Shown here: piece after piece, positions 1-48,976 of the stretch | Position numbering within the stretch: the first letter of the stretch is position 1 | Layout of the letters: each line of letters starts with the position of its first letter | Source of the DNA: Patescibacteria group bacterium | GTDB lineage: Bacteria > Patescibacteriota > JAQUNI01 | DNA: 64,000 nt | Assembly (NCBI GenBank): GCA_028717685.1 | Contig: JAQUNI010000002.1 | Coordinates: 7,903 to 71,902 of the forward strand | Reading direction: 5' to 3' | The notes under the pieces: model-generated | What the model was told of the DNA's origin: nothing | Seen by the model: the letters and a program-made list of their open reading frames with translations, nothing else | The model's database searches: none | Program-made: the position numbers and the translations under genes

Positions 1-1
1 C

Positions 2-3000
2 GATACTTCGGGCAATGGTAATGACGGGGCGATTAGTGGCGCAGCTTGGAAATCCGCTGCCTCGTGCCACAGCGGAGCGTGTTTGCAGTTTGACGGCACG
101 GATGATTATGTGAGTGTGAATGATTCGCCTGCCTTAAGCTCTACAAACGCCATGACAATATCCGGATGGATTAAAACAAGCTCCAATCAATTATACAAGC
201 ATGTACTTGTGAAAGGTGCTACCCTTATCAATAATGATTACGATTTTAGTTTGTATTTTTCAGGTACTTATTCAGTTAATGTTTATATGAAAGACAGCGT
301 GGGAACACTTGATACCGTTGGTTACAGTTTTTCTTTTGGCGATAACAAATGGCACCATTATGTTGCTATGTTTGATGGCGATTGGTTATATTTATATCTT
401 GACGGAACGTTGGTTGCGTCAAAAGATACGGCATTGACTAACATAAGAGATTCAGCTAATCCGTTTCAGATCGGGGTGGGGGGCAACGGGTATTATTTCA
501 ACGGCTCCATTGATGACGTGCGCATCTACAACTACGCGCGCACTCAAAAGCAAATTATAGAAGATATGAATGCCGACCACCCTGCGGTTGGTTCGCCCGT
601 GGGCAGTTATGCTGGGTATTGGAATTTTGACGAGGGGCAAGGCGATACTGCTTATGACAAATCAATAAATAAAAACAATGGGGACTTGGCTGGCGCTTGC
701 CCAGGGGCTGCTACTTGCCCCACATGGACCACTGCTGGCAAATTCGGCAAAGCATTGTCTTTTGACGGAGGCGATTATTTAACTGTAGCTGATAGTGCAA
801 TATTTAACACAGAATCCTTTGCGGTGTGTGCTTGGGTACGGCCAGCATCTTTTTCTAATTATCAGAGCATACTTGCGAAACAAAGGGCAGGGGATACTTT
901 TGAGCAGTTCGGATTATTAGTGTATAGTTCTGGAGCTGTAGCGCTCCAATTAGGAAATGGCGGAACGGGTGCTTTGGGATCTTTAACTCTTAATACGTGG
1001 GCGCATATATGCGGTTCCACAGACGGGACAACAGGAACGTTGTATATTAATGGTCGAGCTTTGGGTACTGGCACTGATAATGCAACTTATGGCGCAGGTA
1101 AGTCGTTTTATATTGGCTATACTCAATATGGAAGTGGGCGTTATTTTAATGGGCTTATAGATGAAGTTAAATTTTATCCATTTGATTTAAGCCCTGCGGA
1201 AATTAAGGAAGAATTTAACCGTGGCTCTTCGTTAAAATTGGGCGCTTCGGGAACCGAGGCAGATGGCATAACTCCAAGCAACTCGGCTTTGTCAGCTTAC
1301 TGCGTGCCGGGCGATGCTACTTCTTGCGCTGCGCCCATTGCCCATTGGAAAATGGACGAGAAAAAAGATAATACTTGTTCTGGGGGCGTAAATGATGTAT
1401 GTAATACTTCTGGCAATGGTAATGACGGGGCAAATACTGGCGGTCCAGTGTGGAAATCCGCTGCCTCGTGCCATTCTGGCTCCTGCCTGTCCTTTGACGG
1501 GACGGATGATTATGTGAATGTGGCGGATAGTGATAATTTAAGTTTTACGACTGGTTATCCGACCGATACTTCTGCAACTGTCTGCGCTTGGATAAAAGCT
1601 AATTCTTTTTCAGCAAATTCAACTATTGTTAGCAAAGTAGGAAGTTCATACGAATGGGAATTATACAATGTTGCTGGAAGCGGAGTAGGTTTTTGGATGT
1701 TGAGTTCGGGTGGCGCTCCTTATATAGGGAGATATGCTCCATTTCCTTCAACTAATGTTTGGCATTATATCTGTGGAGTATATGATGGGAGTAAAGTGGT
1801 AAGCGGTATTAAAGTTTATATTGATGGAATAAGAAGTGATACAAGTAATGACACATCGGGAACTTATGCGGGTTGCAGTAATACAAATGTGCCAGTTAAT
1901 ATAGGAAGAAGGAATGTGCCGGATTCTTATTTCAATGGCCTCATTGACGATGTCCGCATATACAACTACGTCCGCACTCCAGCGCAAATCGCCTGGGATT
2001 ACAATCGCGGAGCGCCAGTTGGGAGCTGGTCAATGGATTCTGTTGGGGTTTCTGCTTCGCCCGGCACGGCTTTGAATGTTTATGACAGCTCGGGAAAAGC
2101 CAACACGGGCGTAAGCTCGGGCGAAACAATGAATAATGGCACTATTACTGGCGCCACGTGGAAAGACGGCTCTAATTGCAAATACGGCTCTTGCCTGTCT
2201 TTTGACGGGAATGACTATGTAAACGTTGGAAGTGGAGCGAGTTTGCATTTTGCAGGAAGTTTTACGGTTGAAGCGTGGGTTAATATTCCAGTTGCACAAA
2301 CGCACGCTGCAGATAATATGATTGTGGGAGATTATAATGGGCTATGGAAAGGATATAAATTTTCAATTGCTTCTGACTCTAAGGTATTTTTTCAAGTCGG
2401 AAGGCAAAGTGACACTACTATGTGTGGCATGTATTCATCACAAACATTGTCACTTAATACTTGGTATCATGTTGTCGGAGTTTATGATGGAGTTAGGCCA
2501 AATATATACGTTAATGGGGTCAAAACGGAAGGCAATGCTTGTTCTCCAATAGAGGCAGAAGTCTCAAGTACGATTATCGGAAAAGCGCAATGGTACAGTC
2601 AATATTTCAACGGCTCCATTGACAATGTCCGCATCTACAATACCGCCTTAACAGCCACGCAAGTTGCCGCTTTGTATAATAACAACGACCGCTCGGCGGG
2701 CGCGAGCTTGGAAGCTAACTTGGTGGGCGAGTGGCGGCTTGACGAAAACGCAAGTTTGTATGCTGCGGACACCCACTACCAGCGCGTTGGCAAATACGGC
2801 TATGCTATGAACTTTGACGGGAGTAATGATTATGTGGCTATTCCATCTTATACGGTTGATGCAGATACTGGAACAATCGCAGCATGGTTTAAAACATCTG
2901 CAGATTTTTCATCAAATTATAATCAGCTTGGATTTTTATTAGGCAATACTGCTGTAAATTACAGTTATTTAGCTTTACAAGGCAATGGAAGCACAGCATA

Positions 3001-3334
3001 TAGCATAAGAGGTGAAACAAATACAAACGGAGAATTTTTTGCCGCTACTTCAGATATAGTGCCTGTAGGGGCATGGAATCAGATTATTACAACCTTCAAT
3101 AATAAAACAGCAAAAACATACTTAAATGGTATTCTCGTAGATACAGAGACTATCACAAATAGCTTAACTCTCTCTCGTATTAGTGGTCTTACATATCTAA
3201 CAAATGTAACATACTTCAACGGCCTCATCGACGATGTCCGCGTATATAACTACGCTCTAACTCCGTTACAAGTTAAGACGCTATATAACGAGAACTCAGC
3301 TGTTCGGTTGGGACCAACAGAGGGATTACCTTAG
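2..3334 (+). CDS. LamG (concanavalin A-like lectin/glucanase, Laminin_G_3-type) repeat protein; 5' partial, continues upstream of the window
   Basis: The frame is open from the window edge (no stop in 2-82). The first 80 nt repeat the module seen again at 1415-1510. Recurring motifs about every 200-250 aa: W-x-(F/M)DEG, SGNGN-G, CLSFDGTDDYV, YFNG(L/S)IDDVRIYN(Y/T)A. Ends ...VRLGPTEGLP*. Confidence 0.85.
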   Translation, partial: DTSGNGNDGAISGAAWKSAASCHSGACLQFDGTDDYVSVNDSPALSSTNAMTISGWIKTSSNQLYKHVLVKGATLINNDYDFSLYFSGTYSVNVYMKDSVGTLDTVGYSFSFGDNKWHHYVAMFDGDWLYLYLDGTLVASKDTALTNIRDSANPFQIGVGGNGYYFNGSIDDVRIYNYARTQKQIIEDMNADHPAVGSPVGSYAGYWNFDEGQGDTAYDKSINKNNGDLAGACPGAATCPTWTTAGKFGKALSFDGGDYLTVADSAIFNTESFAVCAWVRPASFSNYQSILAKQRAGDTFEQFGLLVYSSGAVALQLGNGGTGALGSLTLNTWAHICGSTDGTTGTLYINGRALGTGTDNATYGAGKSFYIGYTQYGSGRYFNGLIDEVKFYPFDLSPAEIKEEFNRGSSLKLGASGTEADGITPSNSALSAYCVPGDATSCAAPIAHWKMDEKKDNTCSGGVNDVCNTSGNGNDGANTGGPVWKSAASCHSGSCLSFDGTDDYVNVADSDNLSFTTGYPTDTSATVCAWIKANSFSANSTIVSKVGSSYEWELYNVAGSGVGFWMLSSGGAPYIGRYAPFPSTNVWHYICGVYDGSKVVSGIKVYIDGIRSDTSNDTSGTYAGCSNTNVPVNIGRRNVPDSYFNGLIDDVRIYNYVRTPAQIAWDYNRGAPVGSWSMDSVGVSASPGTALNVYDSSGKANTGVSSGETMNNGTITGATWKDGSNCKYGSCLSFDGNDYVNVGSGASLHFAGSFTVEAWVNIPVAQTHAADNMIVGDYNGLWKGYKFSIASDSKVFFQVGRQSDTTMCGMYSSQTLSLNTWYHVVGVYDGVRPNIYVNGVKTEGNACSPIEAEVSSTIIGKAQWYSQYFNGSIDNVRIYNTALTATQVAALYNNNDRSAGASLEANLVGEWRLDENASLYAADTHYQRVGKYGYAMNFDGSNDYVAIPSYTVDADTGTIAAWFKTSADFSSNYNQLGFLLGNTAVNYSYLALQGNGSTAYSIRGETNTNGEFFAATSDIVPVGAWNQIITTFNNKTAKTYLNGILVDTETITNSLTLSRISGLTYLTNVTYFNGLIDDVRVYNYALTPLQVKTLYNENSAVRLGPTEGLP

Positions 3335-3336
3335 GA

Positions 3337-3781
3337 AATGAAAAATGAAAAACTAAAAATGAAAAACGACAAAGAAAAATTTAAAAAGGAATTTAAAGCC
3401 AGAATCTACCACTTTATTTTGCGTTTAGTAAAATTTGTAGATAGCTTGCAAAAAGATAGAAGCTCGCAGGTTTTTGCTAATCAAATGCTTCGAAGCGGCA
3501 CAAGTATTGGCGCTAACTATATTGAAGCCCAAGCTTCAAGCTCTAAAAAAGATTTTGCTAATTTTTTCCACCATTCTTTAAAATCAGCCAACGAAACGAA
3601 GTTTTGGTTAGCATTATGCCGTGATTTAAACAAAGGAGAAAAAAGCCAAGCCGAATCTTTACTGCAAGAGCTTACAGAAATTGCCAATATTTTAGGCTCA
3701 AGCCTGCTTACCTTAAAAGGTAAGAAATGATTTTTTAATTTTAGATTGTGGTTTTTCATTTTTCATTTTCAGTTTTTCATT
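3337..3781. mobile_element. IVS-like cassette: a ~30-bp inverted-repeat pair (aaatgaaaaatgaaaaactaaaaatgaaaaac / gtttttcatttttcattttcagtttttcatt) enclosing the four-helix-bundle gene
   Basis: The left and right arms are reverse complements of each other. The same arm family occurs without cargo at 16395-16559, as a solo arm at 14998-15030, and at the nrdD disruption point (62012-62030). Confidence 0.55.
3338..3730 (+). CDS. Four-helix bundle protein (TIGR02436 / 23S rRNA intervening-sequence protein family)
   Basis: 130-aa ORF with the hallmark motif RSGTSIGANYIEAQASSSKKDFANF...ETKFWL. It lies inside an inverted-repeat cassette (3337-3368 / 3751-3781). The true start may be the internal Met at 3359, because the first codons fall in the left repeat arm. 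Confidence 0.8.
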   Translation: MKNEKLKMKNDKEKFKKEFKARIYHFILRLVKFVDSLQKDRSSQVFANQMLRSGTSIGANYIEAQASSSKKDFANFFHHSLKSANETKFWLALCRDLNKGEKSQAESLLQELTEIANILGSSLLTLKGKK

Positions 3782-3878
3782 TGCAACAATTAAGAATTAA
3801 AAATTTTAGAGAGTGGGCTTCGGCGAGACAGAAGGATTGCCATAAGGAGGTCGTGCGAAAGCGCGACACAAAAAGTTA

Positions 3879-6800
3879 ATGAGAAAAACTTCCTTTTTTA
3901 AAAAAATCATTTTTATCGCAATTGCCATCGGGACCATTACCTCCGGCATTTTTATTATCCGCGCGGCGAGCAATAAAGGCGCAGCGCCTGTGGCGTGGTG
4001 GAAGTTTGACGAAGGGTCGGGGACGAGCGCCTACGACTCCTCGGGCAATGGCAATACCGGCACTCTGACTAATATGGACAATACCGACTGGGTCAACGGC
4101 GAGTTTGGCAGTGCTTTGGACTTTGACGGGAGCAATGATTATGTTAACACTAATACTGATTTCAGCTGGGCTATAGCAGATAGTTTTTCTATTGCTTTTT
4201 GGGTTAATCCTACTTCTGTAACAGGCGGTCAAGGCATAATGGGGAAGGGAGCGGCTGGAGGTTATGGAGATTATAATTGGGAGTGGTCTTTTAAACTTGA
4301 TGGTACCAGCTTAAGTTTTGTTTATTGGAATACTGGCGGCGGCGGTGAAATAGTCCTTGGGTCAACAGTTACTCAAGGCACTTGGGATTATTTTGTTGTT
4401 ACTTACGACCCGACAAACAAAGCAAAACTTTACAAAAATGGTGTTGTTGTATCTACGGATACTAGTATTGCTAGCGCCTTGCAGAATAGAGCTACGCCTA
4501 TGTTAATAGGTCATGCGTATTACAATAGCGGTGTTAATTATTACTTCAATGGCCTTATTGATGATACTCGCGTATACAACCACACCCGCACCGCTGACCA
4601 AATCAAAAACGATTACAATGGAGGCAAGGCAATGTATGTTGGTGCGAAACAGCCTGTCTGCGACACTTCTCCGGCGGATTGCGTGAACAAAGGCTTGGTG
4701 GGTTATTGGGATATGGACCAGATGAACGGCACAACTGCCACGGATAAATCAGGGAATGGGAATACAGGCACATTTGCTAGCAGTCCTGTTTGGACGGGCG
4801 GCATAAAACCATTTAGTGGCGGCAGGGCTGGCGGGGGAGCGTTGCAGTTTGATGGGACGGATGATTATGTGAATGCAGGGCAGGGAAGCAGCTTAAATGG
4901 CCTTACTTCTGTGACATTATCGGCGTGGATTAAGCCTTATGGTTATTCGGCTTCTTATCGGAGCGGGATTATTTCTCGTAGAAGAAGCGGCGGGGCGGCG
5001 GAAGGATTGAACTTTACTATGGGTGGAGCGCTGGAAACGCCATATAAGCTGGCTATTTATGAGGCAGGTGGTGTCGCGTTGTATGCAAATACAGTAATTT
5101 CTCCAAATCAATGGTCTTTTGTTACCGCCACATTATCGGGAACTGACGCTAAAATTTATATTAATGGAGTTTTAGACGCAACTGGCACTGTTTCTTGGAA
5201 TTGGCCAAGCGATGTAAATGTATCAATTGGAGCGGTTTATTCTGGCGTTTATCATTTCAACGGACTTATTGACGATGTTCGCGTCTACAACCGAGCTCTG
5301 TCCGCCGCGGAAATACGGTATCAATACAATCAAGGCGACCCCGTTGCTTATTGGAAAATGGACGAAGGATCGGGGACGAGTGCTTACGACTCCTCGGGTA
5401 ATGGCAATACCGGCACTCTGACTAATATGGACAATACCGACTGGGTCAACGGCGAGTTTGGCACGGCTTTGGACTTTGACGGGAGCAATGATTATGTGGA
5501 AATAGTTGATAATGCATCCTTAGACCCTTCAAACGCAATCACGGTGTCTATGTGGTTTAGGCCAGACCAAACATTAGTAAATTACCAAGGAGTTTTAGGA
5601 AAAGGCGGAGGATCAAGTTTTGAAAAAGGATATGAATTCGCTACAAACAATGACGTGTTTGGATTTTGGATAAATGGAAGTACTAATATGGCTGTAACAA
5701 CTAAACCTGCAAGCGGAGAACTTGCTTTTTGGGTTGGAACATTTGATGGAACACAGATTAAATTATATAAAAATGGAAATTTAGTAAACACTGTAAATTA
5801 TATTGCTACGATTACAGATACTAATCTTCCTTTCCGTATTGGGAGGGTAAGTGAATATGGGGGAAATGATGAGTATACAAAAGGTATGTATGACGATGTC
5901 CGCATATATAACTATGCCCGCACCGCTGACCAAATCAAAAACGATTACAATGGAGGCAAGGCAATGTATGTTGGTGCGAAACAGCCTGTCTGCGACACTT
6001 CTCCGGCGGATTGCGTGAACAAAGGCTTGGTGGGTTATTGGGATATGGACCAGATGAACGGCACAACTGCCACGGATAAATCAGGGAATGGGAATACAGG
6101 CACATTTGCTAGCAGTCCTGTTTGGACGGGCGGCATAAAACCATTTAGTGGCGGCAGGGCTGGCGGGGGAGCGTTGCAGTTTGATGGGAGCGATGATTAT
6201 GTGAGCGGAAGCGGTGTTAATATTGCGAATTCTCCATTTACAATTTCAGCTTGGATTAAAGCAGATCAGTTTAATACGAGACAATTTTTTTCAATAGGGT
6301 CAGTGGGCAGCCTGCGCACGGCAATACATCTGCGTCTTCTATCATCCACTTCATTTTTATTCGGGCTGTATAGCGATGATTTGACTGTAACTATGGCGGA
6401 TATGTCTAACCGCTGGACGCATATTGTTGTAACTTTTGACAGTTCTTTTACGCAGAGTGTCTATCAGGATGGCGTGTTTGTTAACTCCAGAACTGCCGGG
6501 GGCTATTTTACCGGTAATACTAATTGGAATATTGGAAGATGGATGACTACTGAATATTTTGACGGCTTCATTGACGATGTCCGCGTCTACAACCGAGCGT
6601 TGTCCGCCGCGGAAATACGGTATCAATACAATCAGGGTGACCCGATTGCTCATTGGTCCTTTGATGAAGGCTCGGGATTATCAGCTTATGATAAAAGCGG
6701 CAATAGCAATACCGGCACTCTGACTAATATGGACGCCGCAACCGACTGGGTCAACGGCGAGTTTGGCAGTGCGTTGGATTTTGATGGGAGTAATGATTAC

Positions 6801-7982
6801 GTGAGCATAAACGGAAACCCAGACCTTTTCCGCGGTTCTAGAACATACGAACTATGGTTCTATCCCCATTTTAATTCTGATAGCGGGGTTAGTAATTTTA
6901 TGTTTTCAATATACCTCAATGATGGTAATGAAATGAGTCTTTATAATTATAGCAACGGCTTTTATGGATTCGCATATAAAGCTGGAGGAAGCGCTAATTA
7001 TATATCAGCAGGGAGTTTTACGGCTAATAATTGGTACCACATTGTTGCCACTTTTGACGACGACACCAATGAAATTAAAGTTTATCATAATGGAGTTTTA
7101 CAAAATCAAGGCACTGAAAGCAACGCAATTGTTGCTGGAACAACATACACTAAAATCGGTATGTATGTTTTGGACGGTTGGTTCAATGGTCTCATAGACG
7201 ATGTCCGCATATACAATTACGCTCGCACCGCTGACCAAATCAAAAACGACTATAATGCCGGTAAGGCGCTATATATTGGCGCGAAACAGCCGGACTGCGA
7301 CACTTCCCCGGGTGACTGCGTGAATAAAGGTCTTGTAGGGTATTGGGATATGGATCAGATGACTGGCACGACTGCGACTGATAAATCGGGCAATGGGAAC
7401 ACCGGCACTTTGACCAGTGGTCCCCTTTGGGCACAGGGCGTTCAGCCGTTTCAGGGTGGCAAAATTGGCGGGGGAGCTCTGCAGTTTGATGGCACGGATG
7501 ATTATGTGGGTGTGACACGAAACGCTAATTTAGAACCCGCAAGTGCTTTTTCCATAGAAACTTGGGTCAAAGTTAGCGCTTTTCAGGATTCAGAATGGAA
7601 TACAAGCCAAATAATATCAAAATATGGCGGAAATTATAAGGGGTATATTTTATCGTTGAATAAAGTTGGTTCAAGCTGGTATTTTTATTTTACCACATGT
7701 ACGCCCAGTACTTGTTACGGCACATCACAACCTACTCAAGCTGTGTCGCTGGGGCAATGGTATCATTTAGTAGCTGTCTTCCAAAATGGTTCTCCTAACT
7801 TAATGTATGTCAACGGGGTACTGGTTGGGCAAAGTGCTAATGCTGCCATTACTCACGATACTGCACAAAATCTATTTATCGGCAAGGCGGGATGGTATTC
7901 ATCTTTCTTCAACGGCACTATTGACGATGTCCGCGTCTACAACCGAGCTCTGTCTCCCGCTGAAATCCGCTATCACTATTAA
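3879..7982 (+). CDS. LamG repeat surface protein with an N-terminal signal anchor; its C-terminal 27 codons continue in the +1 frame (7981-8061)
   Basis: N-terminus MRKTSFFKKIIFIAIAIGTITSGIFII is a hydrophobic signal/TM. At least 5 LamG-like modules (WxFDEGSGTSAYDSSGNGNTGT...FDGSNDYV...FNGLIDDVRVYNRALS). Internal repeats identical at nucleotide level: 4585-4857 = 5917-6189. Strong RBS-like aaggagg at 3844-3850. Confidence 0.85.
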   Translation: MRKTSFFKKIIFIAIAIGTITSGIFIIRAASNKGAAPVAWWKFDEGSGTSAYDSSGNGNTGTLTNMDNTDWVNGEFGSALDFDGSNDYVNTNTDFSWAIADSFSIAFWVNPTSVTGGQGIMGKGAAGGYGDYNWEWSFKLDGTSLSFVYWNTGGGGEIVLGSTVTQGTWDYFVVTYDPTNKAKLYKNGVVVSTDTSIASALQNRATPMLIGHAYYNSGVNYYFNGLIDDTRVYNHTRTADQIKNDYNGGKAMYVGAKQPVCDTSPADCVNKGLVGYWDMDQMNGTTATDKSGNGNTGTFASSPVWTGGIKPFSGGRAGGGALQFDGTDDYVNAGQGSSLNGLTSVTLSAWIKPYGYSASYRSGIISRRRSGGAAEGLNFTMGGALETPYKLAIYEAGGVALYANTVISPNQWSFVTATLSGTDAKIYINGVLDATGTVSWNWPSDVNVSIGAVYSGVYHFNGLIDDVRVYNRALSAAEIRYQYNQGDPVAYWKMDEGSGTSAYDSSGNGNTGTLTNMDNTDWVNGEFGTALDFDGSNDYVEIVDNASLDPSNAITVSMWFRPDQTLVNYQGVLGKGGGSSFEKGYEFATNNDVFGFWINGSTNMAVTTKPASGELAFWVGTFDGTQIKLYKNGNLVNTVNYIATITDTNLPFRIGRVSEYGGNDEYTKGMYDDVRIYNYARTADQIKNDYNGGKAMYVGAKQPVCDTSPADCVNKGLVGYWDMDQMNGTTATDKSGNGNTGTFASSPVWTGGIKPFSGGRAGGGALQFDGSDDYVSGSGVNIANSPFTISAWIKADQFNTRQFFSIGSVGSLRTAIHLRLLSSTSFLFGLYSDDLTVTMADMSNRWTHIVVTFDSSFTQSVYQDGVFVNSRTAGGYFTGNTNWNIGRWMTTEYFDGFIDDVRVYNRALSAAEIRYQYNQGDPIAHWSFDEGSGLSAYDKSGNSNTGTLTNMDAATDWVNGEFGSALDFDGSNDYVSINGNPDLFRGSRTYELWFYPHFNSDSGVSNFMFSIYLNDGNEMSLYNYSNGFYGFAYKAGGSANYISAGSFTANNWYHIVATFDDDTNEIKVYHNGVLQNQGTESNAIVAGTTYTKIGMYVLDGWFNGLIDDVRIYNYARTADQIKNDYNAGKALYIGAKQPDCDTSPGDCVNKGLVGYWDMDQMTGTTATDKSGNGNTGTLTSGPLWAQGVQPFQGGKIGGGALQFDGTDDYVGVTRNANLEPASAFSIETWVKVSAFQDSEWNTSQIISKYGGNYKGYILSLNKVGSSWYFYFTTCTPSTCYGTSQPTQAVSLGQWYHLVAVFQNGSPNLMYVNGVLVGQSANAAITHDTAQNLFIGKAGWYSSFFNGTIDDVRVYNRALSPAEIRYHY

Positions 7983-8061
7983 TCAGGGCAGACCCATTGC
8001 TCATTGGTCTTTTGACGGAGGCGCTGCTTTCCGCCTCGGCTCGAACGAAGGATTACCTTAA
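7981..8061 (+). other. Frameshifted C-terminal tail of the second LamG gene (NQGRPIAHWSFDGGAAFRLGSNEGLP*), reachable only by a +1 shift at ~7980
   Basis: Removing one T in tatTaat at 7977-7983 restores ...IRYHYNQGRPIAHWSFDGG...NEGLP*. This matches both the repeat consensus (IRYQYNQGDPIAHWSFDEG) and the C-terminal ...RLG(P/S)(T/N)EGLP* of the first LamG gene. Confidence 0.6.
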
Positions 8062-8062
8062 A

Positions 8063-8550
8063 GTAATTTTTAATTTTTGATTTGTAATTTTTAACTAATT
8101 TTTATTGAGTTAACGAATTATTGATATGGAGCAAAAGCAGATTAATAATGTTAATTATGATTTGGAAGAAAAGTTTGAAAAATTGGGCGAAAAGATTATT
8201 ATTTTAGTAAAAAAAGCTTGTAAAAATCCTGTTGCATTTCCTTTAATTAATCAGCTAATTCGCTCTGGCACTTCAATAGGAGCCAACTATATGGAGGCAA
8301 ATGGAGCATCAAGTAAAAAGGATTTTAAGAACAAAATCCATATCTGCAAGAAAGAAGCCAAAGAAACAATGCACTGGCTTCGAATGTTGGCAATAGCTGA
8401 TGAAAATATAAAAGACGAATGCAGGATATTGTGGCAAGAAGTTCAGGGTTATGCCAAAATGTTTTCCAAAATTATTTCCACAATGCAAAACAATAAAAAT
8501 TAATACGTTAAGAATTAGTTAAAAATTAAAAATTAAGAATCAAAAATTTA
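8063..8550. mobile_element. Second IVS-like cassette: an inverted-repeat pair (agtaatttttaatttttgatttgtaatttttaac / gttaaaaattaaaaattaagaatcaaaaattta) enclosing the four-helix-bundle gene
   Basis: The arms are imperfect reverse complements. A related solo arm occurs at 63115-63160. Confidence 0.5.
8126..8503 (+). CDS. Four-helix bundle protein (TIGR02436 / 23S rRNA IVS protein family), paralog of 3338-3730
   Basis: Motif IRSGTSIGANYMEANGASSKKDFKNKIHICKKEAKETMHWL. Flanked by the inverted repeats 8063-8096 and 8518-8550. Confidence 0.8.
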   Translation: MEQKQINNVNYDLEEKFEKLGEKIIILVKKACKNPVAFPLINQLIRSGTSIGANYMEANGASSKKDFKNKIHICKKEAKETMHWLRMLAIADENIKDECRILWQEVQGYAKMFSKIISTMQNNKN

Positions 8551-8611
8551 GCCTTGTCTTGTGTAGGCTCTTTTTTTTTGTTAAACTAAAATAAACTAGG
8601 CTAAGAAAACA

Positions 8612-11600
8612 ATGCTTTTTAAAAAGGCTCCTCCCAAGCCCAATTTTCCAGAGATGGAAAGAAAAATCTTGGAATATTGGGAGAAAAATAAAATTTTTGA
8701 AAAAAGTTTAAAGAAACCCTTATCCAAAGGTGATTTTGTGTTTTATGAAGGACCGCCAACAGCGAATGGTAAACCCGGCGTGCATCACGTTGAAGCGCGG
8801 GCGTTTAAAGATTTATTTCCTCGTTATAAGACTATGCAAGGTTACAGGGTGGAACGCAAAGCGGGCTGGGATACGCACGGCCTGCCTGTGGAATTGGAGG
8901 TGGAGAAGAGTTTAGGTTTTTCGGGAAAACGCGACATTGAAAAATATGGCATAGAAAAATTCAACAAAAAATGCGCGGCGTCAGTTTGGAAATATAAAGA
9001 AGAGTGGGAAAAATTAACCAAGCGAATGGGATATTGGGTTGATTTGGAACATCCTTATATTACTTGCTCTAATGAATACATTGAGTCGGTTTGGTTTATT
9101 TTGAAGAAGATTTGGGAGAAAGGGCTTTTGTATCAAGGTCACAAAGTCGTGCCTTATTGCCCAAGATGCGGAACAGCCTTGTCTTCGCACGAAGTAGCGC
9201 AGGGGTATAAAAAGGTAAAGGAGGCAAGTGTGTATGTTAAATTAAAAGTTAAAAGTCAAAAGTTAAAAGTCAAAAGTAAAAATCAAAATTCAGAAATAGG
9301 AGAAACCCCCCTAACCCCCCTTGTCAGGGGGGAAGGCAAGAATGTCTATTTTTTAGCGTGGACGACGACGCCGTGGACATTGCCGGGGAATGTGGCGCTG
9401 GCGCTGGGAGCGGAGATTGGTTATGTTTTAGTGAAGTCTGGAATTAAATTAAAAATTAAAAATGAAAAATTAAAAACCACAATCAAAAATGAAAAAATTA
9501 AAGTTGCTTCGCAACTTTTGAAGGAAAAAGAGGGATATTTAGTTTTAGCTAAAAAGAGGTTGGAAGTTTTGGATGGGGAATATGAGATTATTCAAGAATT
9601 CAAAGGCAAGGATTTAGCAGGGATTGAATATGAGCCCTTGTATCCGGTTTTTTCGGGAGTGGAAAATAGAAACGAAGAAACCCCCCCAACCCCCCTTGTC
9701 AGGGGGGCGAAGAAAGAAGAAAAAGAAAAAGCTTACCATACAGTTTTAGCCGATTTTGTGACTACGGAAGAGGGGACGGGGATTGTGCATACAGCGGTGA
9801 TGTATGGCGAGGATGATTACGCGTTAGGGGAAAAATTGGGTTTGCCGATGATGCATACGGTGGATTTGCAGGGGAGATTTAAACTCAAATCTCAAAACTC
9901 AAATCTCAAAACTACAACTCAAATTTCAAAATTTAAAGTTGCTTCGCAACTTTTAGATAAAATAGAAGGAAAATTTGTTAAGGACGCGGAGAAGGATATT
10001 GTTGAGGATTTGCGAAAAAGGGATTTGCTTTATAAATCTGAATTATACGAGCATGATTATCCCTTTTGCTGGCGGTGCAAAACACCTTTGCTTTACTACG
10101 CGAAAAAAAGCTGGTTTATCGCGATGAGTAAGCTGCGTGATAAATTAGTGGAAAATAATGAGAAGATAAACTGGATTCCGAAATATTTAAAAACTGGCCG
10201 TTTTGGCAAGTGGATTGCCGAGGCAAAGGAGTGGGCAGTATCGAGGGAGAGGTACTGGGGCACTCCGATGCCGATATGGATTTGCAAAAAATGCGGAGAG
10301 GTGAAGGTGATTGGGAGTAGGGAAGAATTTTATTCCGTCATTGCGAGCGGAGCGAAGCAATCGCCAGCAAGCAAAACCGAAGCTAGAAATGTCGGAACAT
10401 TGTCTTTACTAAATGGAGATTGCCGCGGTCGTCCCTCGACAGGCTCGGGATTCCCTCGCAATGACGACATTCTAATGGATTTACATCGTCCATATATTGA
10501 TGAGATTGTTCTTAAATGTAAGTGTGGTGGAGAAATGCGGCGGGTGCCGGAAGTTTTGGATTGCTGGTTTGATTCGGGGGCGATGCCATTCAGCCAAAAC
10601 CATTGGCCGTTTACTGACAGTTCCTCCCCTCTAAAGGGGAGGGCAGGAGAGGTTGTGAAGGGAGAGCCGAAACCCCCCCTAATCCCCCTTGTCAGGGGGG
10701 AGGGAAATCCTCCGAAATTATTTCCTGCCGATTTTATTTGTGAAGCCGTGGATCAAACAAGGGGCTGGTTTTACACGCTCCTCGCGATTTCCACACTTTT
10801 GGATTTTGGAGCGCCCTATAAAAATGTAATTTCCTTAGGCCACGTTTTGGATAAAAATGGCCAAAAAATGAGCAAATCTAGGGGAAATATTGTAGAGCCT
10901 TTCAAGGCTTTGGACGAATTTTCCGCTGATTCTATCCGCTGGTTTTTTTACACCGTAAATCGGCCGCAGGAATCTAAGAATTTTGACCCCGCGATCTTGC
11001 GCGACATTGTCTCGCGGTTTATTTTGACTTTATGGAATAGTTATTCTTTCTTTTTAACCTATGCGAGTATTGATCAACCCAAGCTTTCTAATGTCTTTGC
11101 GAGCGGAGCCCAAAAAGGCGGAGCGAAGCAATCTCTTCGCAATGACATTGCTGGAAACATTCTTGATCAATGGATTCTTTCTCGTTTAGCTGAATTGAAC
11201 AATAATATTGTTCAGTATCTCGATCGTTATGATGTCTTAAAAGCCGCGAAAGAAATTGAACAATTTGTTGATGATTTATCAAACTGGTATATCAGGCGGT
11301 CGCGCCGTAGATTTTGGAAAAGTGAAAATGATCAAGATAAAAACCAAGGATACAATACATTGCATTCTGTTTTAGTCTTACTATGCGAAATGTTGGCGCC
11401 TTTTATGCCTTTCCTAACGGAAAATATTTATCGTAATTTAACGGGCAAGGAGTCGGTCCATTTAGCCAAATTTCCCAAGATTTCATCCGAAGGAACTGAC
11501 CAAGGTATTTTGGAGCAGATGGATATTACGCGTAAGATTGTAACTTTAGGGCTGAATTTACGGGCGCAAGCAAAGATAAAGGTTCGGCAGCCGTTAGATA

Positions 11601-12064
11601 AGTTAAAAGTTAAAAGTGAAAAGTTAAAAGTTATAACTCAAAACTCAAAACTTTTAAATTTAATGAGAGAAGAATTGAATATTAAAGAGATAAAGGTTGT
11701 ATCGGAAATCAAGGAAGCGGGTGATTTGCTCGTGGCTGAAGATGGGGATTTGAAAGTGGCTTTGAATATAAAGATTACCCCAGAATTGAAGCGGGAAGGT
11801 ATTGTCCGCGATTTAGTGCGGGTGGTTCAAGAAATGAGAAAGAAAGCGGGTTTAGAGGTTTCGGATCGGATTGAGCTTTCCTTATACAGTGAAGATGGAG
11901 AGATTCAAAAAGCAATTCAAGAATGGCAGGATTATATTCAAAAAGAAACTTTGGCAGAAAGGTTAGGAGAGATTTGGGGTGGGATAGATGAGGTAGAGAA
12001 AGTGAAAATAGAAGGCAAAGAGGTGCAGATTAGTATAAGAAATTGTTCTAATTGTTCTAATTAA
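8612..12064 (+). CDS. ileS: Isoleucine--tRNA ligase (type 2 IleRS) carrying several in-frame repeat insertions
   Basis: Class I aaRS signatures PPTANGKPGVHHV (HIGH-like), WTTTPWTLPGNVALA, KMSKSRGN. N-terminus NFPEMERKILEYWEKNKIFEKS. Low-complexity and palindromic insertions are described under findings. Confidence 0.92.
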   Translation: MLFKKAPPKPNFPEMERKILEYWEKNKIFEKSLKKPLSKGDFVFYEGPPTANGKPGVHHVEARAFKDLFPRYKTMQGYRVERKAGWDTHGLPVELEVEKSLGFSGKRDIEKYGIEKFNKKCAASVWKYKEEWEKLTKRMGYWVDLEHPYITCSNEYIESVWFILKKIWEKGLLYQGHKVVPYCPRCGTALSSHEVAQGYKKVKEASVYVKLKVKSQKLKVKSKNQNSEIGETPLTPLVRGEGKNVYFLAWTTTPWTLPGNVALALGAEIGYVLVKSGIKLKIKNEKLKTTIKNEKIKVASQLLKEKEGYLVLAKKRLEVLDGEYEIIQEFKGKDLAGIEYEPLYPVFSGVENRNEETPPTPLVRGAKKEEKEKAYHTVLADFVTTEEGTGIVHTAVMYGEDDYALGEKLGLPMMHTVDLQGRFKLKSQNSNLKTTTQISKFKVASQLLDKIEGKFVKDAEKDIVEDLRKRDLLYKSELYEHDYPFCWRCKTPLLYYAKKSWFIAMSKLRDKLVENNEKINWIPKYLKTGRFGKWIAEAKEWAVSRERYWGTPMPIWICKKCGEVKVIGSREEFYSVIASGAKQSPASKTEARNVGTLSLLNGDCRGRPSTGSGFPRNDDILMDLHRPYIDEIVLKCKCGGEMRRVPEVLDCWFDSGAMPFSQNHWPFTDSSSPLKGRAGEVVKGEPKPPLIPLVRGEGNPPKLFPADFICEAVDQTRGWFYTLLAISTLLDFGAPYKNVISLGHVLDKNGQKMSKSRGNIVEPFKALDEFSADSIRWFFYTVNRPQESKNFDPAILRDIVSRFILTLWNSYSFFLTYASIDQPKLSNVFASGAQKGGAKQSLRNDIAGNILDQWILSRLAELNNNIVQYLDRYDVLKAAKEIEQFVDDLSNWYIRRSRRRFWKSENDQDKNQGYNTLHSVLVLLCEMLAPFMPFLTENIYRNLTGKESVHLAKFPKISSEGTDQGILEQMDITRKIVTLGLNLRAQAKIKVRQPLDKLKVKSEKLKVITQNSKLLNLMREELNIKEIKVVSEIKEAGDLLVAEDGDLKVALNIKITPELKREGIVRDLVRVVQEMRKKAGLEVSDRIELSLYSEDGEIQKAIQEWQDYIQKETLAERLGEIWGGIDEVEKVKIEGKEVQISIRNCSNCSN
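10337..10465. repeat. 129-bp (43-codon) palindromic-ended element inserted in frame in ileS (gtcattgcgag ... ctcgcaatgac termini)
   Basis: 11-bp terminal inverted repeats. The length is divisible by 3 and it starts on a codon boundary. A shorter relative occurs at 11097-11146 in ileS and a related sequence at 23040-23150 in the tatD-leuS spacer. Confidence 0.55.
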
Positions 12065-12217
12065 GCTAATTGATCTAAATAAATCCCAATGCCTAAATCC
12101 CAATAAACAAAATCAATCATTAAATTTGATCATTGGGTAGTTCAAGATTTGGTCATTATTTAGAATAACCTGCCTACCGGCAGGCGGGTTAGAGTAATTA
12201 GAATAATTAGAACAATT
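12040..12217. repeat. MITE-like inverted-repeat element (aattgttctaattgttctaatt family) in the ileS-recO spacer
   Basis: Left arm 12040-12068 (supplies the ileS C-terminus ...RNCSNCSN*). Right arm 12196-12217 is its reverse complement. Internal hairpin cctgcctaccggcagg. A sibling element lies at 17566-17716. Confidence 0.5.
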
Positions 12218-12222
12218 CTCTA

Positions 12223-13020
12223 ATGTTTTATTCTTCCAAAACCAGAGGTATCATTATTAAACGCATAAAATATGGTGAAGCAGACCGTGTTTTGACGGTT
12301 TTTACTGAAGATTTAGGCAAAATTCAGGTGTTGGCGCGGGGAATTCGCCGCGGAAAAAGCAAGTTGGCAGGGATTTTAGAGCTTTTTAACTTGGTGCAGT
12401 TAGAGCTCGTCCGCGGCAGAAATTTAGATGTGGTGATTGGAGCGCATGCTTTAAATAATTTTTTAGGTTTAAAAACTGACTTCAAGAAAGTATCCTTTGC
12501 CCATTTTTCAGCCGAATTTATTGATAAGTTTACGGAAGAAAGAGGGACGGATAGGAGGCTTTACGCTCTTTTTCGTGATTTATTTTTAAATCTGGATAAA
12601 TTCGCGGGTAAAAAGGATTATTTATGGGCTTTGATTTTAGATGAATGGCGGATGTTGGAATATTTGGGGGTAATGCCGCGGCTTTATCATTGCGCGGGGT
12701 GCGGCTTATCTCTTTCGGATGCGAAAATTTTGTCTTTAGGCGAGGGGGGATTGTATTGCGCAAATTGCGCGTCGCGAGCAGGGCTTTCCGATCCTGTTCG
12801 CGAGGAAGTCGTGGAGATTTTATTGTCTTGCGGGGGGCGATATGTGCGCCAACCCGCAGGAATCGGGCGGACACGCTGGTCCGCTCCTACGGGAGATTTG
12901 GAGCAAGCAGGTTTAGTGTTGGCGTATTTTTTAAGCGCGAGTTTAGCCCCGCGAATAAAATCATGGCATTTTTTGAAAAAATATCAAGATTATGGGAAGA
13001 CCCGAACGCCGGTCCATTAG
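12223..13020 (+). CDS. recO: DNA repair protein RecO
   Basis: N-terminal OB-fold-like region (GIIIKRIKYGEADRVLTVFTEDLGKI). Zinc-finger-like CAGCG...CANC. Confidence 0.8.
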   Translation: MFYSSKTRGIIIKRIKYGEADRVLTVFTEDLGKIQVLARGIRRGKSKLAGILELFNLVQLELVRGRNLDVVIGAHALNNFLGLKTDFKKVSFAHFSAEFIDKFTEERGTDRRLYALFRDLFLNLDKFAGKKDYLWALILDEWRMLEYLGVMPRLYHCAGCGLSLSDAKILSLGEGGLYCANCASRAGLSDPVREEVVEILLSCGGRYVRQPAGIGRTRWSAPTGDLEQAGLVLAYFLSASLAPRIKSWHFLKKYQDYGKTRTPVH

Positions 13021-13095
13021 ATTGCCGGGGTATGATTATTCTGAAAGAACGGGGTCTAATCCATGGTATAATTGTGATTTTTATAATGCAGGGGT

Positions 13096-14994: not shown

Positions 14995-15093
14995 ATAAAA
15001 ATGAAAAATGAAAAACTAAAAATGAATAAGAGACAAGAAATACAAAATAAAAAATTTACTTTCTAAGTTTTTTGTGTTACGATAATAAAAAAT

Positions 15094-16394: not shown

Positions 16395-16559
16395 AAAAAT
16401 GAAAAGTGAAAAATGAAAAACCATAATCTAAAATTAAAAAATTTTAAAGAATACTTTTTTTATCAATTTTTACTGCTTTTAGATGGTAAGAACCTGGGGT
16501 TTAAATTCTTTTTAGATTTTTCATTGTGATTTTTCATTTTTCACTTTCAGTTTTTCATT
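16395..16559. repeat. Cargo-less copy of the four-helix-bundle cassette inverted repeats (MITE-like, 165 bp)
   Basis: Left arm aaaaatgaaaagtgaaaaatgaaaaacc, right arm gatttttcattgtgatttttcatttttcactttcagtttttcatt. No ORF between them. Confidence 0.55.
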
Positions 16560-16625
16560 AAATTTTTTTAAATCTTCAACCATTAATCATAAATCATTTA
16601 TTCTCTAGAATAATAAGTTTAATTT

Positions 16626-17564: not shown

Positions 17565-17565
17565 A

Positions 17566-17716
17566 ATTAAAATTATTCTAATTAACCTAATTATTCTAAG
17601 AAATGACCAATGTCTAAGTACCAATGAATAAATGAATAACAGAATTGGCTAATTAGGATTTGTTTATTCCTGATTTATTTAGGTCAATTAGAATAATTAG
17701 AGCAATTAGAAATTTA
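17566..17716. repeat. MITE-like inverted-repeat element (aattattctaatt family), sibling of 12040-12217
   Basis: Arms 17566-17601 and 17683-17716 are reverse complements. Confidence 0.5.
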
Positions 17717-20552: not shown

Positions 20553-20663
20553 AGAAGTAATCTAAAATGGAAAATCTAAAATATATATTTAAATCAAATT
20601 TTACATTTTAGATTTTAGTTTTTAAATTGAATTAGATTTTTAATTCTATCACAATATAAATTC

Positions 20664-37251: not shown

Positions 37252-37325
37252 TGAATCAGGAATAATGAATCATGAATCAGGAATAGTTCCTGATTCCCCA
37301 TTCCTAATTCCTGATTCCTTTCAAT

Positions 37326-48810: not shown

Positions 48811-48976
48811 AAATTTTCAATTTTCAATTTCTAATTTCTATTAAATTTCTAGTGAATCAATTTTAAAACTTCATACGGAATAAATTTTATTGTACTTGGC
48901 TTGATTAAAGATTTGAGGTTTAAAAATTAAAAGAATTGAAAATTCAATAAAAATTGAAAATTAGAAATTAGAAATT
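48811..48976. repeat. MITE-like inverted-repeat element (ttttcaatttctaatttc family) between pth and the LCP gene
   Basis: Arms 48811-48852 and 48929-48976. Confidence 0.5.

Follow-up and report, generated by a model that had tools for sequence, protein, structure and literature searches.

The Rickettsia palindromic elements (RPE) are short palindromic repeats that lie in frame within housekeeping genes. Intervening sequences (IVSs) of the 23S rRNA are known from Leptospira and Coxiella burnetii; the Coxiella IVS measures 428-444 nt and has a 28-bp stem, which is cut by RNase III (PMC4990558). Here we describe two genes from a 64,000-nt stretch of DNA of a Patescibacteria group bacterium (the window, in whose positions coordinates are given) that belong to the same PF05635/TIGR02436 family as the IVS genes of Leptospira and of Coxiella burnetii (S23p). 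They further resemble the rRNA IVSs in that the ORF stands within terminal inverted repeats forming a long stem, in size (about 447 and 487 nt), in being promoterless and oriented in sense within a transcription unit of the host, and in a sporadic distribution, which suggests horizontal transfer (PMC4990558). We think it fairly probable that both genes, together with their arms, are IVS-type mobile cassettes, promoterless and served by read-through from the host, which decay to empty hairpins and solo arms.

Both ORFs had been assigned to the four-helix-bundle family in a first-pass annotation made from the letters of the window, and the profile search agreed. Gene 1 (3359-3730, forward strand, 123 aa) matched TIGR02436 at 2.5e-25 (88.8 bits, cutoff 24; ORF 3338/3359-3730) and PF05635 at 8.9e-21, and gene 2 (8126-8503, forward strand, 125 aa) matched the same two profiles at 4.4e-21 and 1.2e-15, respectively; the two products are 31-37% identical. 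A second ATG for gene 1 lies upstream at 3338, inside the left arm; because the homologues are 123 aa long, M8 at 3359 was taken as the true start. The AF2 model of gene 1 consists of four helices (pLDDT 94.8) and retrieved 2RLD, 2GSC and Avd (4DWL/8UB7) in Foldseek, and gene 2 retrieved 2RLD at 2e-14. The dN/dS values, 0.04 for gene 1 against locus L001 and 0.06 for gene 2 against locus L064 (about 0.05 overall), indicate strong purifying selection on both proteins. As dS is saturated (>1) even in the closest pairs, recent transfer is not directly visible.

Each gene is enclosed in one hairpin cassette of about 450-490 nt placed between host genes, and the proposed IVS-like architecture, a PF05635 ORF in the loop of a long inverted-repeat stem, was thereby recovered. 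The left arm of cassette 1 (3336-3387, forward strand) begins 1 nt past the stop codon of the upstream LamG gene, consists of A-rich heptads (AAATGAA, five times) and contains the ATG of gene 1, and its right arm (3731-3782, forward strand) consists of T-rich heptads. In cassette 2 the left arm (8064-8113, forward strand) is made of AATTTTT-type heptads and the right arm (8500-8550, forward strand) overlaps the last codons of gene 2. The inverted repeats extend over 52 nt (I1, 81% complementary) and 49 nt (I2, 8065-8113/8500-8548, 82% complementary), so that both genes are bracketed as first claimed, by arms of about 50 nt instead of the reported ~30 bp. When the folding was checked, the predicted arm-to-arm stems formed in both cassettes, in the MFE as well as the centroid structures, with z-scores against shuffles of -4.6 for cassette 1 and -3.2 for cassette 2. 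A terminator-like GCCT...AGGC hairpin followed by a T9 run can be read straight off the sequence at 8552-8580 (forward strand), where a consensus terminator scan made no call. A counterpart is kept at about 6596-6640 in the syntenic relative L145, and the hairpin is the downstream edge of the insertion site of cassette 2.

The closest relatives of the two cassettes, L001 (84% nucleotide identity) and L064 (82%), are homologous to the window over 3333-3781 and 8059-8548, respectively; beyond the outer arm ends the homology breaks off into unrelated flanks. In L145 the spacer between the LamG and IleRS genes carries a cassette of another clade with GGGAGAT arms, and further spacers contain hairpins whose repeat type differs between the window genome and L145. 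The limits of homology and the reuse of this spacer support the mobility that had been suggested for the cassettes. Counting against it, none of 52 elements showed a target-site duplication, and no exact pair of filled and empty orthologous sites was recovered. A RAYT-like Y1 transposase gene is intact in L145 (11512-12249) and left as a relic in the window (12992-13044); the Y1 gene adjoins no cassette.

We then considered 157 homologous loci, 61 from genomes, 75 from metagenomes and 21 from viral contigs. Flanking inverted repeats of their own (z>=5) were present at 43/61, 67/75 and 15/21 of these loci, respectively (about 125/157), including loci with G/C-containing heptads. Elements of the one set span 426-545 nt, those of the other 423-574 nt (median 471). 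A tandem array of 7-nt repeats makes up each arm and is mirrored on the opposite side; the heptad differs by clade (AAAAATG, AATTTTN, GGGAGAT, AAGTATC, TAATTCG and others) while the arms remain complementary. Arm autocorrelation is 0.62 at lag 7 compared with about 0.35 at other lags, lag 7 or 14 is the peak in 42-43 of 46 arms, and near-perfect period-7 tracts comprise mostly 4-5 heptads (about 28-35 nt). The upstream neighbour lies on the same strand at 43/45 and 61/62 loci of the two sets and the downstream neighbour at about 38/45 and 45/53, and the left arm begins a median of about 0-5 nt past the upstream stop codon. The general feature is thus placement in sense orientation in the spacer right after a same-strand stop codon (104/107). 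No match to 23S rRNA was found at the 143 genome and metagenome loci screened, and an Rfam scan of 20 of these yielded no rRNA. Promoter-like sites are not enriched (15, with 12.7 expected), and no transposase, integrase or reverse transcriptase was among the neighbour families listed. The architecture looks like a widespread mobile element of bacteria and phages, seemingly undescribed outside ribosomal RNA.

Both genes of the window follow giant LamG genes, and the first-pass annotation had offered two explanations for this: a target preference for LamG 3' ends, or a processing or stability module for the LamG transcripts. The homologous loci speak against the first of these, since LamG genes occur in the flanks, upstream or downstream, of 0/63 clade-1 loci and 14/80 loci of the cassette-2 clade, and the neighbours are diverse. 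The 88 immediate neighbours in clade 1 are diverse housekeeping genes, LamG being absent among the 25 commonest families listed, and the cassette-2 clade has 111 neighbour families. With a general position after any same-strand stop codon and neighbours of such diversity, a module dedicated to LamG transcripts is unlikely as well. On our preferred reading the LamG association in the window probably reflects a permissive or recurrently used spacer with no dedicated LamG function; that LamG adjacency recurs in the cassette-2 clade counts against this.

The upstream gene, LamG1 (1-3334, forward strand; PF13385 at 1.5e-136 in 5 stretches), is cut at its 5' end by the window start, its frame being open at base 1, and ends in ...AVRLGPTEGLP*, with the 15-nt motif GARGGAYTRCCNTAR in frame at 3320-3334. 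LamG2 (3879-7982, forward strand; 1367 aa, PF13385 at 1.7e-160 in 6 stretches) had been thought to share this 3' end. The motif is present there (8047-8061), in another reading frame: aligned with the gene's internal repeats, LamG2 has 1 extra nucleotide near 7975, and this insertion creates the TAA at 7980-7982. The former C-terminus (...NQGRPIAHWSFDGGAAFRLGSNEGLP*), recognised by translation and motif match, now lies out of frame at 7983-8061 (forward strand), so that cassette 2 starts 82 nt past the actual stop codon. The motif has a third, non-coding copy at 3831-3845, which makes three matches compared with 0.26 expected by chance. This copy belongs to a segment (3786-3845, forward strand) that begins with a solo type-2 right-arm fragment (3786-3806; 18/18 identity to the reverse complement of the left arm of e2, an empty hairpin described below) and continues with the frame RVGFGETEGLP* (3810-3845). 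The same arm-plus-motif module recurs in L145 at about 16990-17045.

Arms of both types are also found without a gene. The empty type-1 hairpin e1 (16395-16560, not assigned to a strand), first placed at 16395-16559, was confirmed between a class II aaRS gene and NIF3; its arms (16395-16450/16506-16560) are 95-97% identical to the right arm of cassette 1, and its fold has a z-score of -4.0. The solo type-1 arm first noted at 14998 also stood: it occupies 14999-15026 (forward strand), 3' of the stop codon of a DUF11 gene, with 28/28 identity to the left arm of cassette 1, and a search for an inverted partner found none. The site at 63115, likewise taken for a solo arm, proved to be an empty type-2 hairpin (e2, 63111-63247, not assigned to a strand) after nrdG, in which the arm at 63111 pairs with 63207-63247 (z = -4.2); its arms are 90-95% identical to those of cassette 2. 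The presence of a repeat arm at the nrdD break was verified too. There an insert of ~110 nt interrupts a type-1 left arm (62020-62198, forward strand); the part at 62020-62038 provides a TGA stop codon, the glycyl-radical C-terminus restarts at 62199 with AAGGAGG plus ATG, and the match to the Pfam NRDD model extends no further than position 528 of 562. Two further type-1 arms lie in frame within synthetase genes on the forward strand. The one in IleRS (9441-9497, peptide KLKIKNEKLKTTIKNEKIK) is 88% identical to the right arm of cassette 1 over 52 nt, and the corresponding site differs in the IleRS of L145; the other, recognised by arm matches, is in LeuRS (24300-24361, peptide EIKNEKLKIKNHNLKFKN). 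Cargo-less copies in the window are 94-100% identical to the resident cassette arms; matches of such copies to the cassette arms of the same genome range over 90-100%, and at 29 of 90 loci the flanks contain additional copies of the locus's own arms. The window contains further repeat types, AATTATTCT, CAGGAAT and TTAAAAG, with no matching protein gene in view.

Several explanations were weighed against these data. That the arms are ordinary A/T-rich low-complexity sequence, complementary by accident, is scarcely credible; they are indeed A/T-rich and repetitive, and short matches to them are frequent, but this explanation was rejected on the fold z-scores (-3.2 to -4.6), on the 21 period-7 tracts of the window compared with 0 in five shuffled windows, on the rarity (1.8%) with which random control segments of the loci reach the tract score, on the generality of the inverted repeats and on stem covariation. 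In alignment A1, 77.7% of cells were paired, compared with 48-63% when the partner was slid, and changes on both sides occurred at 21 pairs (score 0.126, at most 0.062 in the slid controls). RNAalifold predicted no consensus structure from the full-length alignment. Mismatches in the arms comprised 160 G:U and 154 A:C (p = 0.78); as G:U is not favoured, the arms carry no RNA-specific signature, and selection on a sense-strand RNA stem, which would predict a G:U excess, is disfavoured. Judging from these mismatches, complementarity may be kept at the DNA level instead. The same counts weaken the view, unlikely in our opinion, that the hairpins benefit the host as stabilisers of mRNA 3' ends, processing sites or terminators, kept REP/BIME-like after operon stop codons, the four-helix-bundle genes being merely regulated by them. 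This would fit elements directly after same-strand stop codons, stable folds for all of them, and spacers that hold some hairpin in both related genomes, if of differing repeat type. It is harder to reconcile with unrelated neighbour genes (hence no LamG specificity), with hairpins in orthologous spacers that are non-homologous, which indicates turnover and not conservation, with arms inside coding sequences, one of them splitting nrdD, and with A:T-rich stems followed by no T-run, the terminator-like hairpin lying outside cassette 2.

A constraint at the DNA level, suggested by equal G:U and A:C mismatches, would suit a doubtful but better-placed alternative, modelled on REP/REPIN-RAYT systems, in which the Avd-like protein would be a sequence-specific partner of the heptad arms. 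It would bind the repeats in their 7-nt register, as DNA or RNA, and steer their spread or regulate them, acting by itself or jointly with an enzyme of the host (a Y1 transposase or reverse transcriptase, for example). Empty hairpins and solo arms would be non-autonomous and dependent on the resident protein. Each protein clade has its own heptad and the cargo-less copies match the cassette arms of the same genome; near-perfect tracts group at 4-5 heptads, and relatives crystallise as pentamers (five chains per entry in 2RLD and 2GSC). In 8UB7, a DGR ribonucleoprotein, Avd is bound to RT and RNA, and a RAYT-like Y1 transposase is at hand in L145 and, as a relic, in the window. Physical linkage alone would, however, lead one to expect that arm type follows protein clade; for three repeat types of the window no matching protein gene is in view, no catalytic motif is known from the protein, and the Y1 gene keeps apart from the cassettes. 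A role of the two genes as Avd accessory genes of a retroelement (DGR) diversifying the LamG C-termini can be regarded as highly improbable, although PF05635 is the Avd-like family (PMC10053308), Foldseek matched Avd (4DWL) and the DGR ribonucleoprotein (8UB7), and the genes lie directly 3' of large surface-protein genes. The window ORFs of at least DGR-RT size (about 300-400 aa) and the smaller ORFs scanned gave no Pfam reverse-transcriptase match, and no repeat pair of the window shows adenine-biased mismatches (maximum 48%). RT is likewise absent among the 25 commonest families listed per neighbour set (three sets, 205 neighbours; families matched by more than one neighbour), and the closest relatives adjoin unrelated housekeeping genes. 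With neither a reverse transcriptase nor a TR/VR pair, the window does not contain a DGR, and this role was largely rejected for it.

Our preferred reading, that of IVS-type cassettes, would combine these observations as follows. A gene and its two ~50-nt arms would form one compact element, kin to the ORF-bearing 23S rRNA IVSs, lodged in spacers between codirectional protein-coding genes. It would be a selfish cassette, mobile or horizontally exchanged and expressed by read-through from the host operon, and the stem may be opened with the help of translation of the upstream gene. Once transcribed, the arms would form a long A:U-rich duplex, which by analogy with the rRNA IVSs could be cut by RNase III. 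Copies would decay to empty hairpins and solo arms; IleRS and LeuRS appear to tolerate some of these in frame, and nrdD would have been split by one.

The cassettes share features with several known systems. They are reminiscent of RPE in the in-frame arms of IleRS and LeuRS, which vary between close relatives, and of MITEs in the empty hairpins, which code for nothing and carry terminal inverted repeats; they depart from both in the periodic heptads of the arms, in a coding 'master' copy for a non-enzymatic protein and in that no target-site duplication was detected. The Avd proteins of DGRs share the four-helix-bundle fold and the superfamily (Foldseek 4DWL, 8UB7; PMC10053308), and an Avd gene likewise is small and follows a large surface-protein gene at its 3' end. 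The retroelement itself, with its reverse transcriptase and TR/VR pair, distinguishes DGRs from the window. To our knowledge, known Avd genes are not described as enclosed by inverted repeats. With REP/REPIN-RAYT systems the cassettes have in common a single gene between inverted copies of one short repeat, the scattering of that repeat as cargo-less hairpins mostly just after stop codons, the lack of target-site duplications and a repeat type specific to the genome or clade. There the resemblance ends, since the product of the flanked gene here is a four-helix bundle lacking HUH/Tyr motifs, ~50-nt arms of A/T-rich tandem heptads take the place of GC-rich palindromes of 20-40 nt, and the RAYT-like gene is found only elsewhere. 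The 23S rRNA IVSs themselves differ from the cassettes in lying in helix 45 or 25 and not in spacers of protein genes, and the stem of Coxiella is 28 bp whereas the cassette arms consist of heptads in tandem over about 50 nt. In Coxiella the ORF reportedly decays and is untranslated, whereas the protein is under strong purifying selection here.

The window has the gene content of a Patescibacteria (CPR) chromosome, with ordinary housekeeping genes and a G+C content of approximately 42%, and a Candidatus Doudnabacteria MAG is the closest relative. The encoded IleRS matches an NCBI protein of a "Patescibacteria group bacterium" MAG with 100% identity. Both small ORFs downstream of its LamG genes are clear members of the TIGR02436/PF05635 four-helix-bundle family, as the first-pass annotation had proposed: in an HMM search they exceeded the curated cut-offs of both profiles, with 88.8 bits (protein 1) and 75.1 bits (protein 2) for TIGR02436 (cut-off 24), and 74.5 and 58.0 bits for PF05635 (cut-off 33.8). 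The start of gene 1 was placed at 3359 because its database homologues are 123 aa long. The two proteins share only 31-37% identity, and the nearest solved structure is 2RLD for both (2.6e-16 and 2e-14, respectively). The AF2 model of protein 1, built as a monomer (pLDDT 94.8), comprises four long helices (2-28, 34-58, 63-89 and 95-119). A Foldseek search with this model returned 2RLD (TM 0.77-0.88) and 2GSC (TM 0.75-0.85), PDB entries of five chains apiece, followed by Avd, the accessory protein of the Bordetella phage DGR (4DWL, 8UB7). The modelled fold is an up-down four-helix bundle like 2RLD and 2GSC. The dN/dS ratio of 0.04-0.06 indicates strong purifying selection on the protein. PADLOC gave no defence-system match, and a role as a known defence component was rejected on this basis.

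Gene 1 lies within cassette 1 (3336-3782), which follows the first LamG gene (LamG1, 1-3334, its 5' part cut by the window start) and precedes a short relic region (3786-3845) and the second LamG gene (LamG2, 3879-7982). A dead LamG2 C-terminus (7983-8061) separates LamG2 from cassette 2 (8064-8550), which is followed by a terminator-like hairpin (8552-8580) and the IleRS gene (8612-12064). The inverted repeats reported to bracket each four-helix-bundle gene are indeed complementary (81-82%), and their arms measure 52 nt in cassette 1 and 49 nt in cassette 2 rather than the approximately 30 bp first given. Arm-to-arm folds were obtained for both cassettes and for both cargo-less elements of the window (z = -3.2 to -4.6). 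The left arms are built of A-rich heptads (AAAAATG) in cassette 1 and of AATTTTT-type heptads in cassette 2; they represent distinct elements of a common kind, and to each belongs an empty derivative in the window (e1 with type-1 arms, e2 with type-2 arms). When e1 and e2 were compared with the cassettes for an origin by internal deletion, convincing alignment was confined to the arms. The window contains 21 period-7 tracts, compared with none in five shuffles, and the period-7 tract score was reached by only 1.8% of random control segments from the homologous loci, so that chance low-complexity sequence was rejected as an explanation.

The architecture recurs in homologous loci, which were collected from species-representative genomes with protein 1 as the query (63 loci, 61 testable), from metagenome contigs with protein 2 (80 loci, 75 testable) and from IMG/VR viral contigs with the family profile (21 loci). 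Own inverted repeats, called at z>=5, were present at 43 of 61 genome loci, 67 of 75 metagenome loci and 15 of 21 viral loci, and the ORF-in-a-stem arrangement was thus seen at approximately 125 of 157 loci, in Patescibacteria, Planctomycetota, Bacteroidota and phage contigs. The genome set comes mainly from Patescibacteria and also includes MAGs labelled Planctomycetota, Bacteroidota, Verrucomicrobiota or Actinomycetota. The viral relatives of the protein are distant (32-45% identity) and include examples with perfect tandem arms (TAATTCG repeated 4.7 times in L147, AACCTAT in L148); phages may carry cassettes between hosts. The length of the element is tightly constrained: it ranges from 426 to 545 nt among the genome loci and from 423 to 574 nt, with a median of 471, among the metagenome loci.

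The arms share a period rather than a sequence. Their mean autocorrelation was 0.62 at lag 7 and 0.58 at lag 14, compared with approximately 0.35 at other lags, and the peak fell at lag 7 or 14 in 42-43 of 46 arms. The heptads themselves are diverse (AAAAATG, AATTTTC, AAGTATC, AAATTCA, AAGTGAC, TAATTCG, AACCTAT, GGGAGAT), and each is always mirrored on the opposite side of the ORF. The lengths of near-perfect heptad tracts group around 4-5 repeats, and the full arms in alignment A1 comprise approximately seven A-tract blocks. As RNAalifold yielded no consensus structure for 25 full-length cassettes, the stem was tested through explicit pair counts. In an alignment of 25 clade-1 cassettes (relatives of protein 1), the 52-pair stem was 77.7% paired, compared with 48-63% when the partner was slid by 1-3 columns; both sides had changed at 21 pairs, and the covariation score reached 0.126, whereas no slid control exceeded 0.062. 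Selection acting on the sense-strand RNA is expected to leave more G:U pairs than A:C mismatches. A first, smaller set gave 77 G:U and 55 A:C (p = 0.07), a trend that was gone with 115 elements (160 versus 154), which hence show no RNA-specific signature in their arms. Complementarity is thus maintained without preference for either strand, in keeping with a property that the element has as DNA. A hairpin at its ends might be what is recognised, or one arm might be homogenised against the other. In the transcript the stem would form all the same, and cleavage by RNase III is plausible by analogy with rRNA intervening sequences (IVSs), the stems of which are cut by this enzyme (PMC4990558).

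Cassettes occupy a narrow position between genes. The upstream neighbour lies on the ORF strand in 43 of 45 cases in the genome set and 61 of 62 in the metagenome set, and the downstream neighbour in approximately 38 of 45 and in 45 of 53 cases, respectively. Since the arms have a similar appearance on either strand, this bias concerns the ORF. The left arm starts a few nucleotides past the upstream stop codon, which it at times provides, and the distance from the end of the right arm to the next start codon is usually at most approximately 10-15 nt. The region 3200-8700 shows no enrichment of promoter-like sites. The strand bias of the ORF, together with its low dN/dS, speaks for synthesis of the protein from read-through transcripts of the host. 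The neighbours are diverse and include PrgI/T4SS pilin, GrpE-DnaJ, EF-Tu/EF-G, GroEL and aminoacyl-tRNA synthetase genes, among many others. In four Bacteroidota MAGs (L056, L057, L059 and L062), three of them labelled Chitinophagaceae or Chitinophaga, the cassette lies between grpE and dnaJ, which suggests either vertical retention or repeated use of this site. Tandem cassettes also occur (L064 1193-2482): the gene just upstream of the cassette in L064, the closest relative of cassette 2, encodes a PF05635 protein, and three of 117 clade-2 neighbours (clade 2 being the relatives of protein 2) belong to this family.

The placement of both cassettes after LamG genes had been read as a target preference for LamG 3' ends or as a module serving the LamG transcripts. 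Neither reading holds in general, as no LamG gene was found in the flanks of the 63 clade-1 loci and one was nearby in only 14 of 80 clade-2 loci, directly adjacent (upstream or downstream) in approximately nine; the hairpins are therefore not LamG-specific. LamG was absent from the 25 commonest neighbour families listed for the clade of cassette 1. In the clade-2 set it is the commonest single neighbour family, yet accounts for 7 of 117 neighbours. LamG as a general target was thus rejected for the clade of cassette 1 and is a recurrent minority in that of cassette 2. In the syntenic relative L145 a single LamG gene is present, with a clade-2 cassette upstream and a third-clade cassette downstream (443 nt, GGGAGAT arms at 5927-5956 and 6340-6369). 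The latter sits in the same LamG-IleRS spacer as cassette 2 in the window, and this site 3' of LamG is thus one in recurrent use.

The LamG genes do share a tail. A motif of 15 nt, GARGGAYTRCCNTAR, embedded in approximately 35 nt of similar sequence, closes the LamG genes as ...EGLP*, including that of L145. It was found at 3320-3334, 3831-3845 and 8047-8061 in the window (three matches, compared with 0.26 expected) and at 5911-5925 and 17031-17045 in L145, and in both sequences it also occurs as non-coding DNA directly 3' of type-2 right arms. The weak similarity on either side of cassette 1 (z = 2.8) is this tail motif, which is also present 3' of a type-2 element in L145. LamG2 had been described as ending in the same peptide, and this needed correction: compared with its internal repeats, LamG2 carries one inserted nucleotide (window 7970-8061), so that a premature TAA arises at 7980-7982 and the conserved tail ...RLGSNEGLP* falls out of frame. 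Either a genuine mutation or an error of assembly could underlie this frameshift.

Comparison with the closest relatives defines the unit that is shared between genomes and supports its mobility and turnover. L001 (protein 92%, DNA 84% identical) matches the window over 3333-3781 only, and L064 (88% and 82%) over 8059-8548 only, the flanks being unrelated in both; the outer arm ends are therefore the limits of the shared unit. Where spacers of the window and L145 are orthologous, the hairpins in them are of differing repeat types. No consistent flanking direct repeat that would represent a target-site duplication was found at any of 52 elements, no transposase, integrase or reverse transcriptase (RT) was seen adjoining the cassettes, and no exact empty orthologous site was recovered.

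Copies of the arms are scattered over the window, largely where the first-pass annotation had placed them: a solo type-1 arm at 14999-15026, the empty hairpin e1 at 16395-16560 and an arm copy at the nrdD break (62020-62198). The supposed solo arm at 63115 proved to be one half of an arm pair, that is, of the empty hairpin e2 (63111-63247). Identity between the cargo-less copies and the resident arms is 94-100%, which exceeds that of the same cassette in another genome, and 29 of 90 loci have further copies of their own arms within a few kb of flank. In the split nrdD gene (59998-62354) the type-1 arm at 62020 provides a TGA stop, followed by an insert of approximately 110 nt, after which AAGGAGG and an ATG at 62199 restart a 51-aa piece with the glycyl-radical motif (RVVGY). 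Arm copies also lie in frame within the IleRS and LeuRS genes. The in-frame repeat inserts of these two genes include heptad tracts at 9233-9297, 9441-9486, 9875-9919 and 11594-11657 in IleRS and at 23893-23942, 24300-24361 and 25165-25210 in LeuRS (23214-25709). Between IleRS of the window and that of L145 (6701-10459), blocks of 95-100% identity alternate with approximately eight sites of non-homologous in-frame inserts. These repeat inserts in synthetase genes resemble the Rickettsia palindromic elements, which occur in housekeeping genes. The same two genes also contain GC-rich palindromic units (peptides PLTPLVRGEG, three times, and ASGAKQSP...PRNDD).

Further cargo-less periodic hairpins lie in intergenic spacers at 12041-12217, 17564-17714, 20560-20627, 37250-37320 and 48812-48976, with repeat types AATTGTTCT/AATTATTCT (period 9), CAGGAAT and AATTTTC; IleRS owes its last residues (NCSNCSN*) and its stop codon to the hairpin at 12041. 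In L018 the four-helix-bundle ORF is interrupted near its start (approximately 5930-6000) by a GC-rich palindrome (CTGCCTGCCCTGCCTGCCGGTAGGCAGGGCGGTAGGCA), so that different repeat families nest in one another.

The cassettes are probably IVS-type elements that are exchanged between genomes and decay in place. Each would consist of an Avd-like gene without a promoter of its own, enclosed by heptad-repeat arms and lodged in sense orientation between co-transcribed genes, would be expressed by read-through of host transcription, and would leave empty hairpins and solo arms as it decays. The main rival, which we consider rather improbable, makes the protein the specific partner of the heptad arms, by analogy with RAYT and REPINs. 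The clustering of near-perfect tracts at 4-5 repeats and the five chains per entry in 2RLD and 2GSC both point this way, as does a RAYT-like Y1 (IS200-type) transposase that would be the candidate helper enzyme. An intact gene for this enzyme is present in L145 (11512-12249; Pfam Y1_Tnp 1.4e-5; motifs RLPGYDY, PNHLHG and NYYEHI), and a relic of it, the first 17 codons, remains at the same site in the window (12992-13044), between recO and a DUF11 gene. A broader version, which we regard as unlikely, would have Avd-like pentamers as dedicated partners of a large, hitherto unrecognised class of 7-nt-repeat hairpins, reading approximately 4-5 heptads per arm and driving or controlling the spread of arms in bacteria and phages; ORF-bearing 23S rRNA IVSs, the in-frame inserts in Patescibacteria housekeeping genes and possibly the Avd of DGRs would be descendants of this single element type. 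One heptad per subunit is a speculation that goes with it.

The function of IVS ORFs and the origin of IVSs have, to our knowledge, been open questions since the early 1990s, and only a handful of rRNA-borne examples are available for study. In the loci collected here the ORF-in-a-stem architecture is common in the family and located in ordinary operons, where arm binding, stem cutting and element movement become testable. One family thereby connects the ORFs of rRNA IVSs with DGR Avd proteins and with the hairpin repeats that are dense in Patescibacteria genomes, including the in-frame aminoacyl-tRNA synthetase inserts and the split nrdD. For annotation, cassettes account for many isolated "four helix bundle protein" calls and can provide stop codons and C-termini to neighbouring genes. 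Earlier work had established that PF05635 ORFs occur in 23S rRNA IVSs (PMC4990558) and that the family is related to Avd (PMC10053308). Among open-access papers and preprints we found no description of the ORF-in-a-stem as common across the family outside rRNA, of the 7-nt periodicity of the arms or of sense-oriented operon wedges with cargo-less derivatives; an earlier one is possible in each case.

Several known systems share part of this organisation. A DGR was rejected: no RT family was found in the window, either in ORFs of DGR-RT size (approximately 300-400 aa) or larger or in the smaller ones scanned, nor among the 25 commonest families listed per neighbour set (families with a single neighbour left out). 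No TR/VR pair with adenine-biased mismatches was present, the best repeat pair having 48% of its mismatches at A or T. Inverted repeats are shared with MITEs, which differ from the cassettes in their target-site duplication. From REPIN/RAYT systems the cassettes differ in that the repeat-flanked genes belong to PF05635 and not to the Y1 (HUH) transposases, Y1_Tnp being found only in L145 and as the relic in the window; the likeness lies in the dispersal of the element's own repeat as cargo-less hairpins in spacers (e1, e2 and the solo arm here, and the arm copies of the 29 loci). With respect to 23S rRNA IVSs, the difference is one of location, as the cassettes are flanked by protein-coding genes and do not lie in a 23S helix: no rRNA was found in the window or in an Rfam scan of 20 genome and metagenome loci, and in these two sets, 143 loci in all, blastn with E. 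coli 23S gave no match; one of the 143 has a 16S start approximately 3 kb from the cassette. The likeness is in the element itself, and here the IVS-like architecture originally suggested for the two cassettes is upheld, as terminal inverted repeats form a stem, supported by covariation, around a PF05635 ORF.
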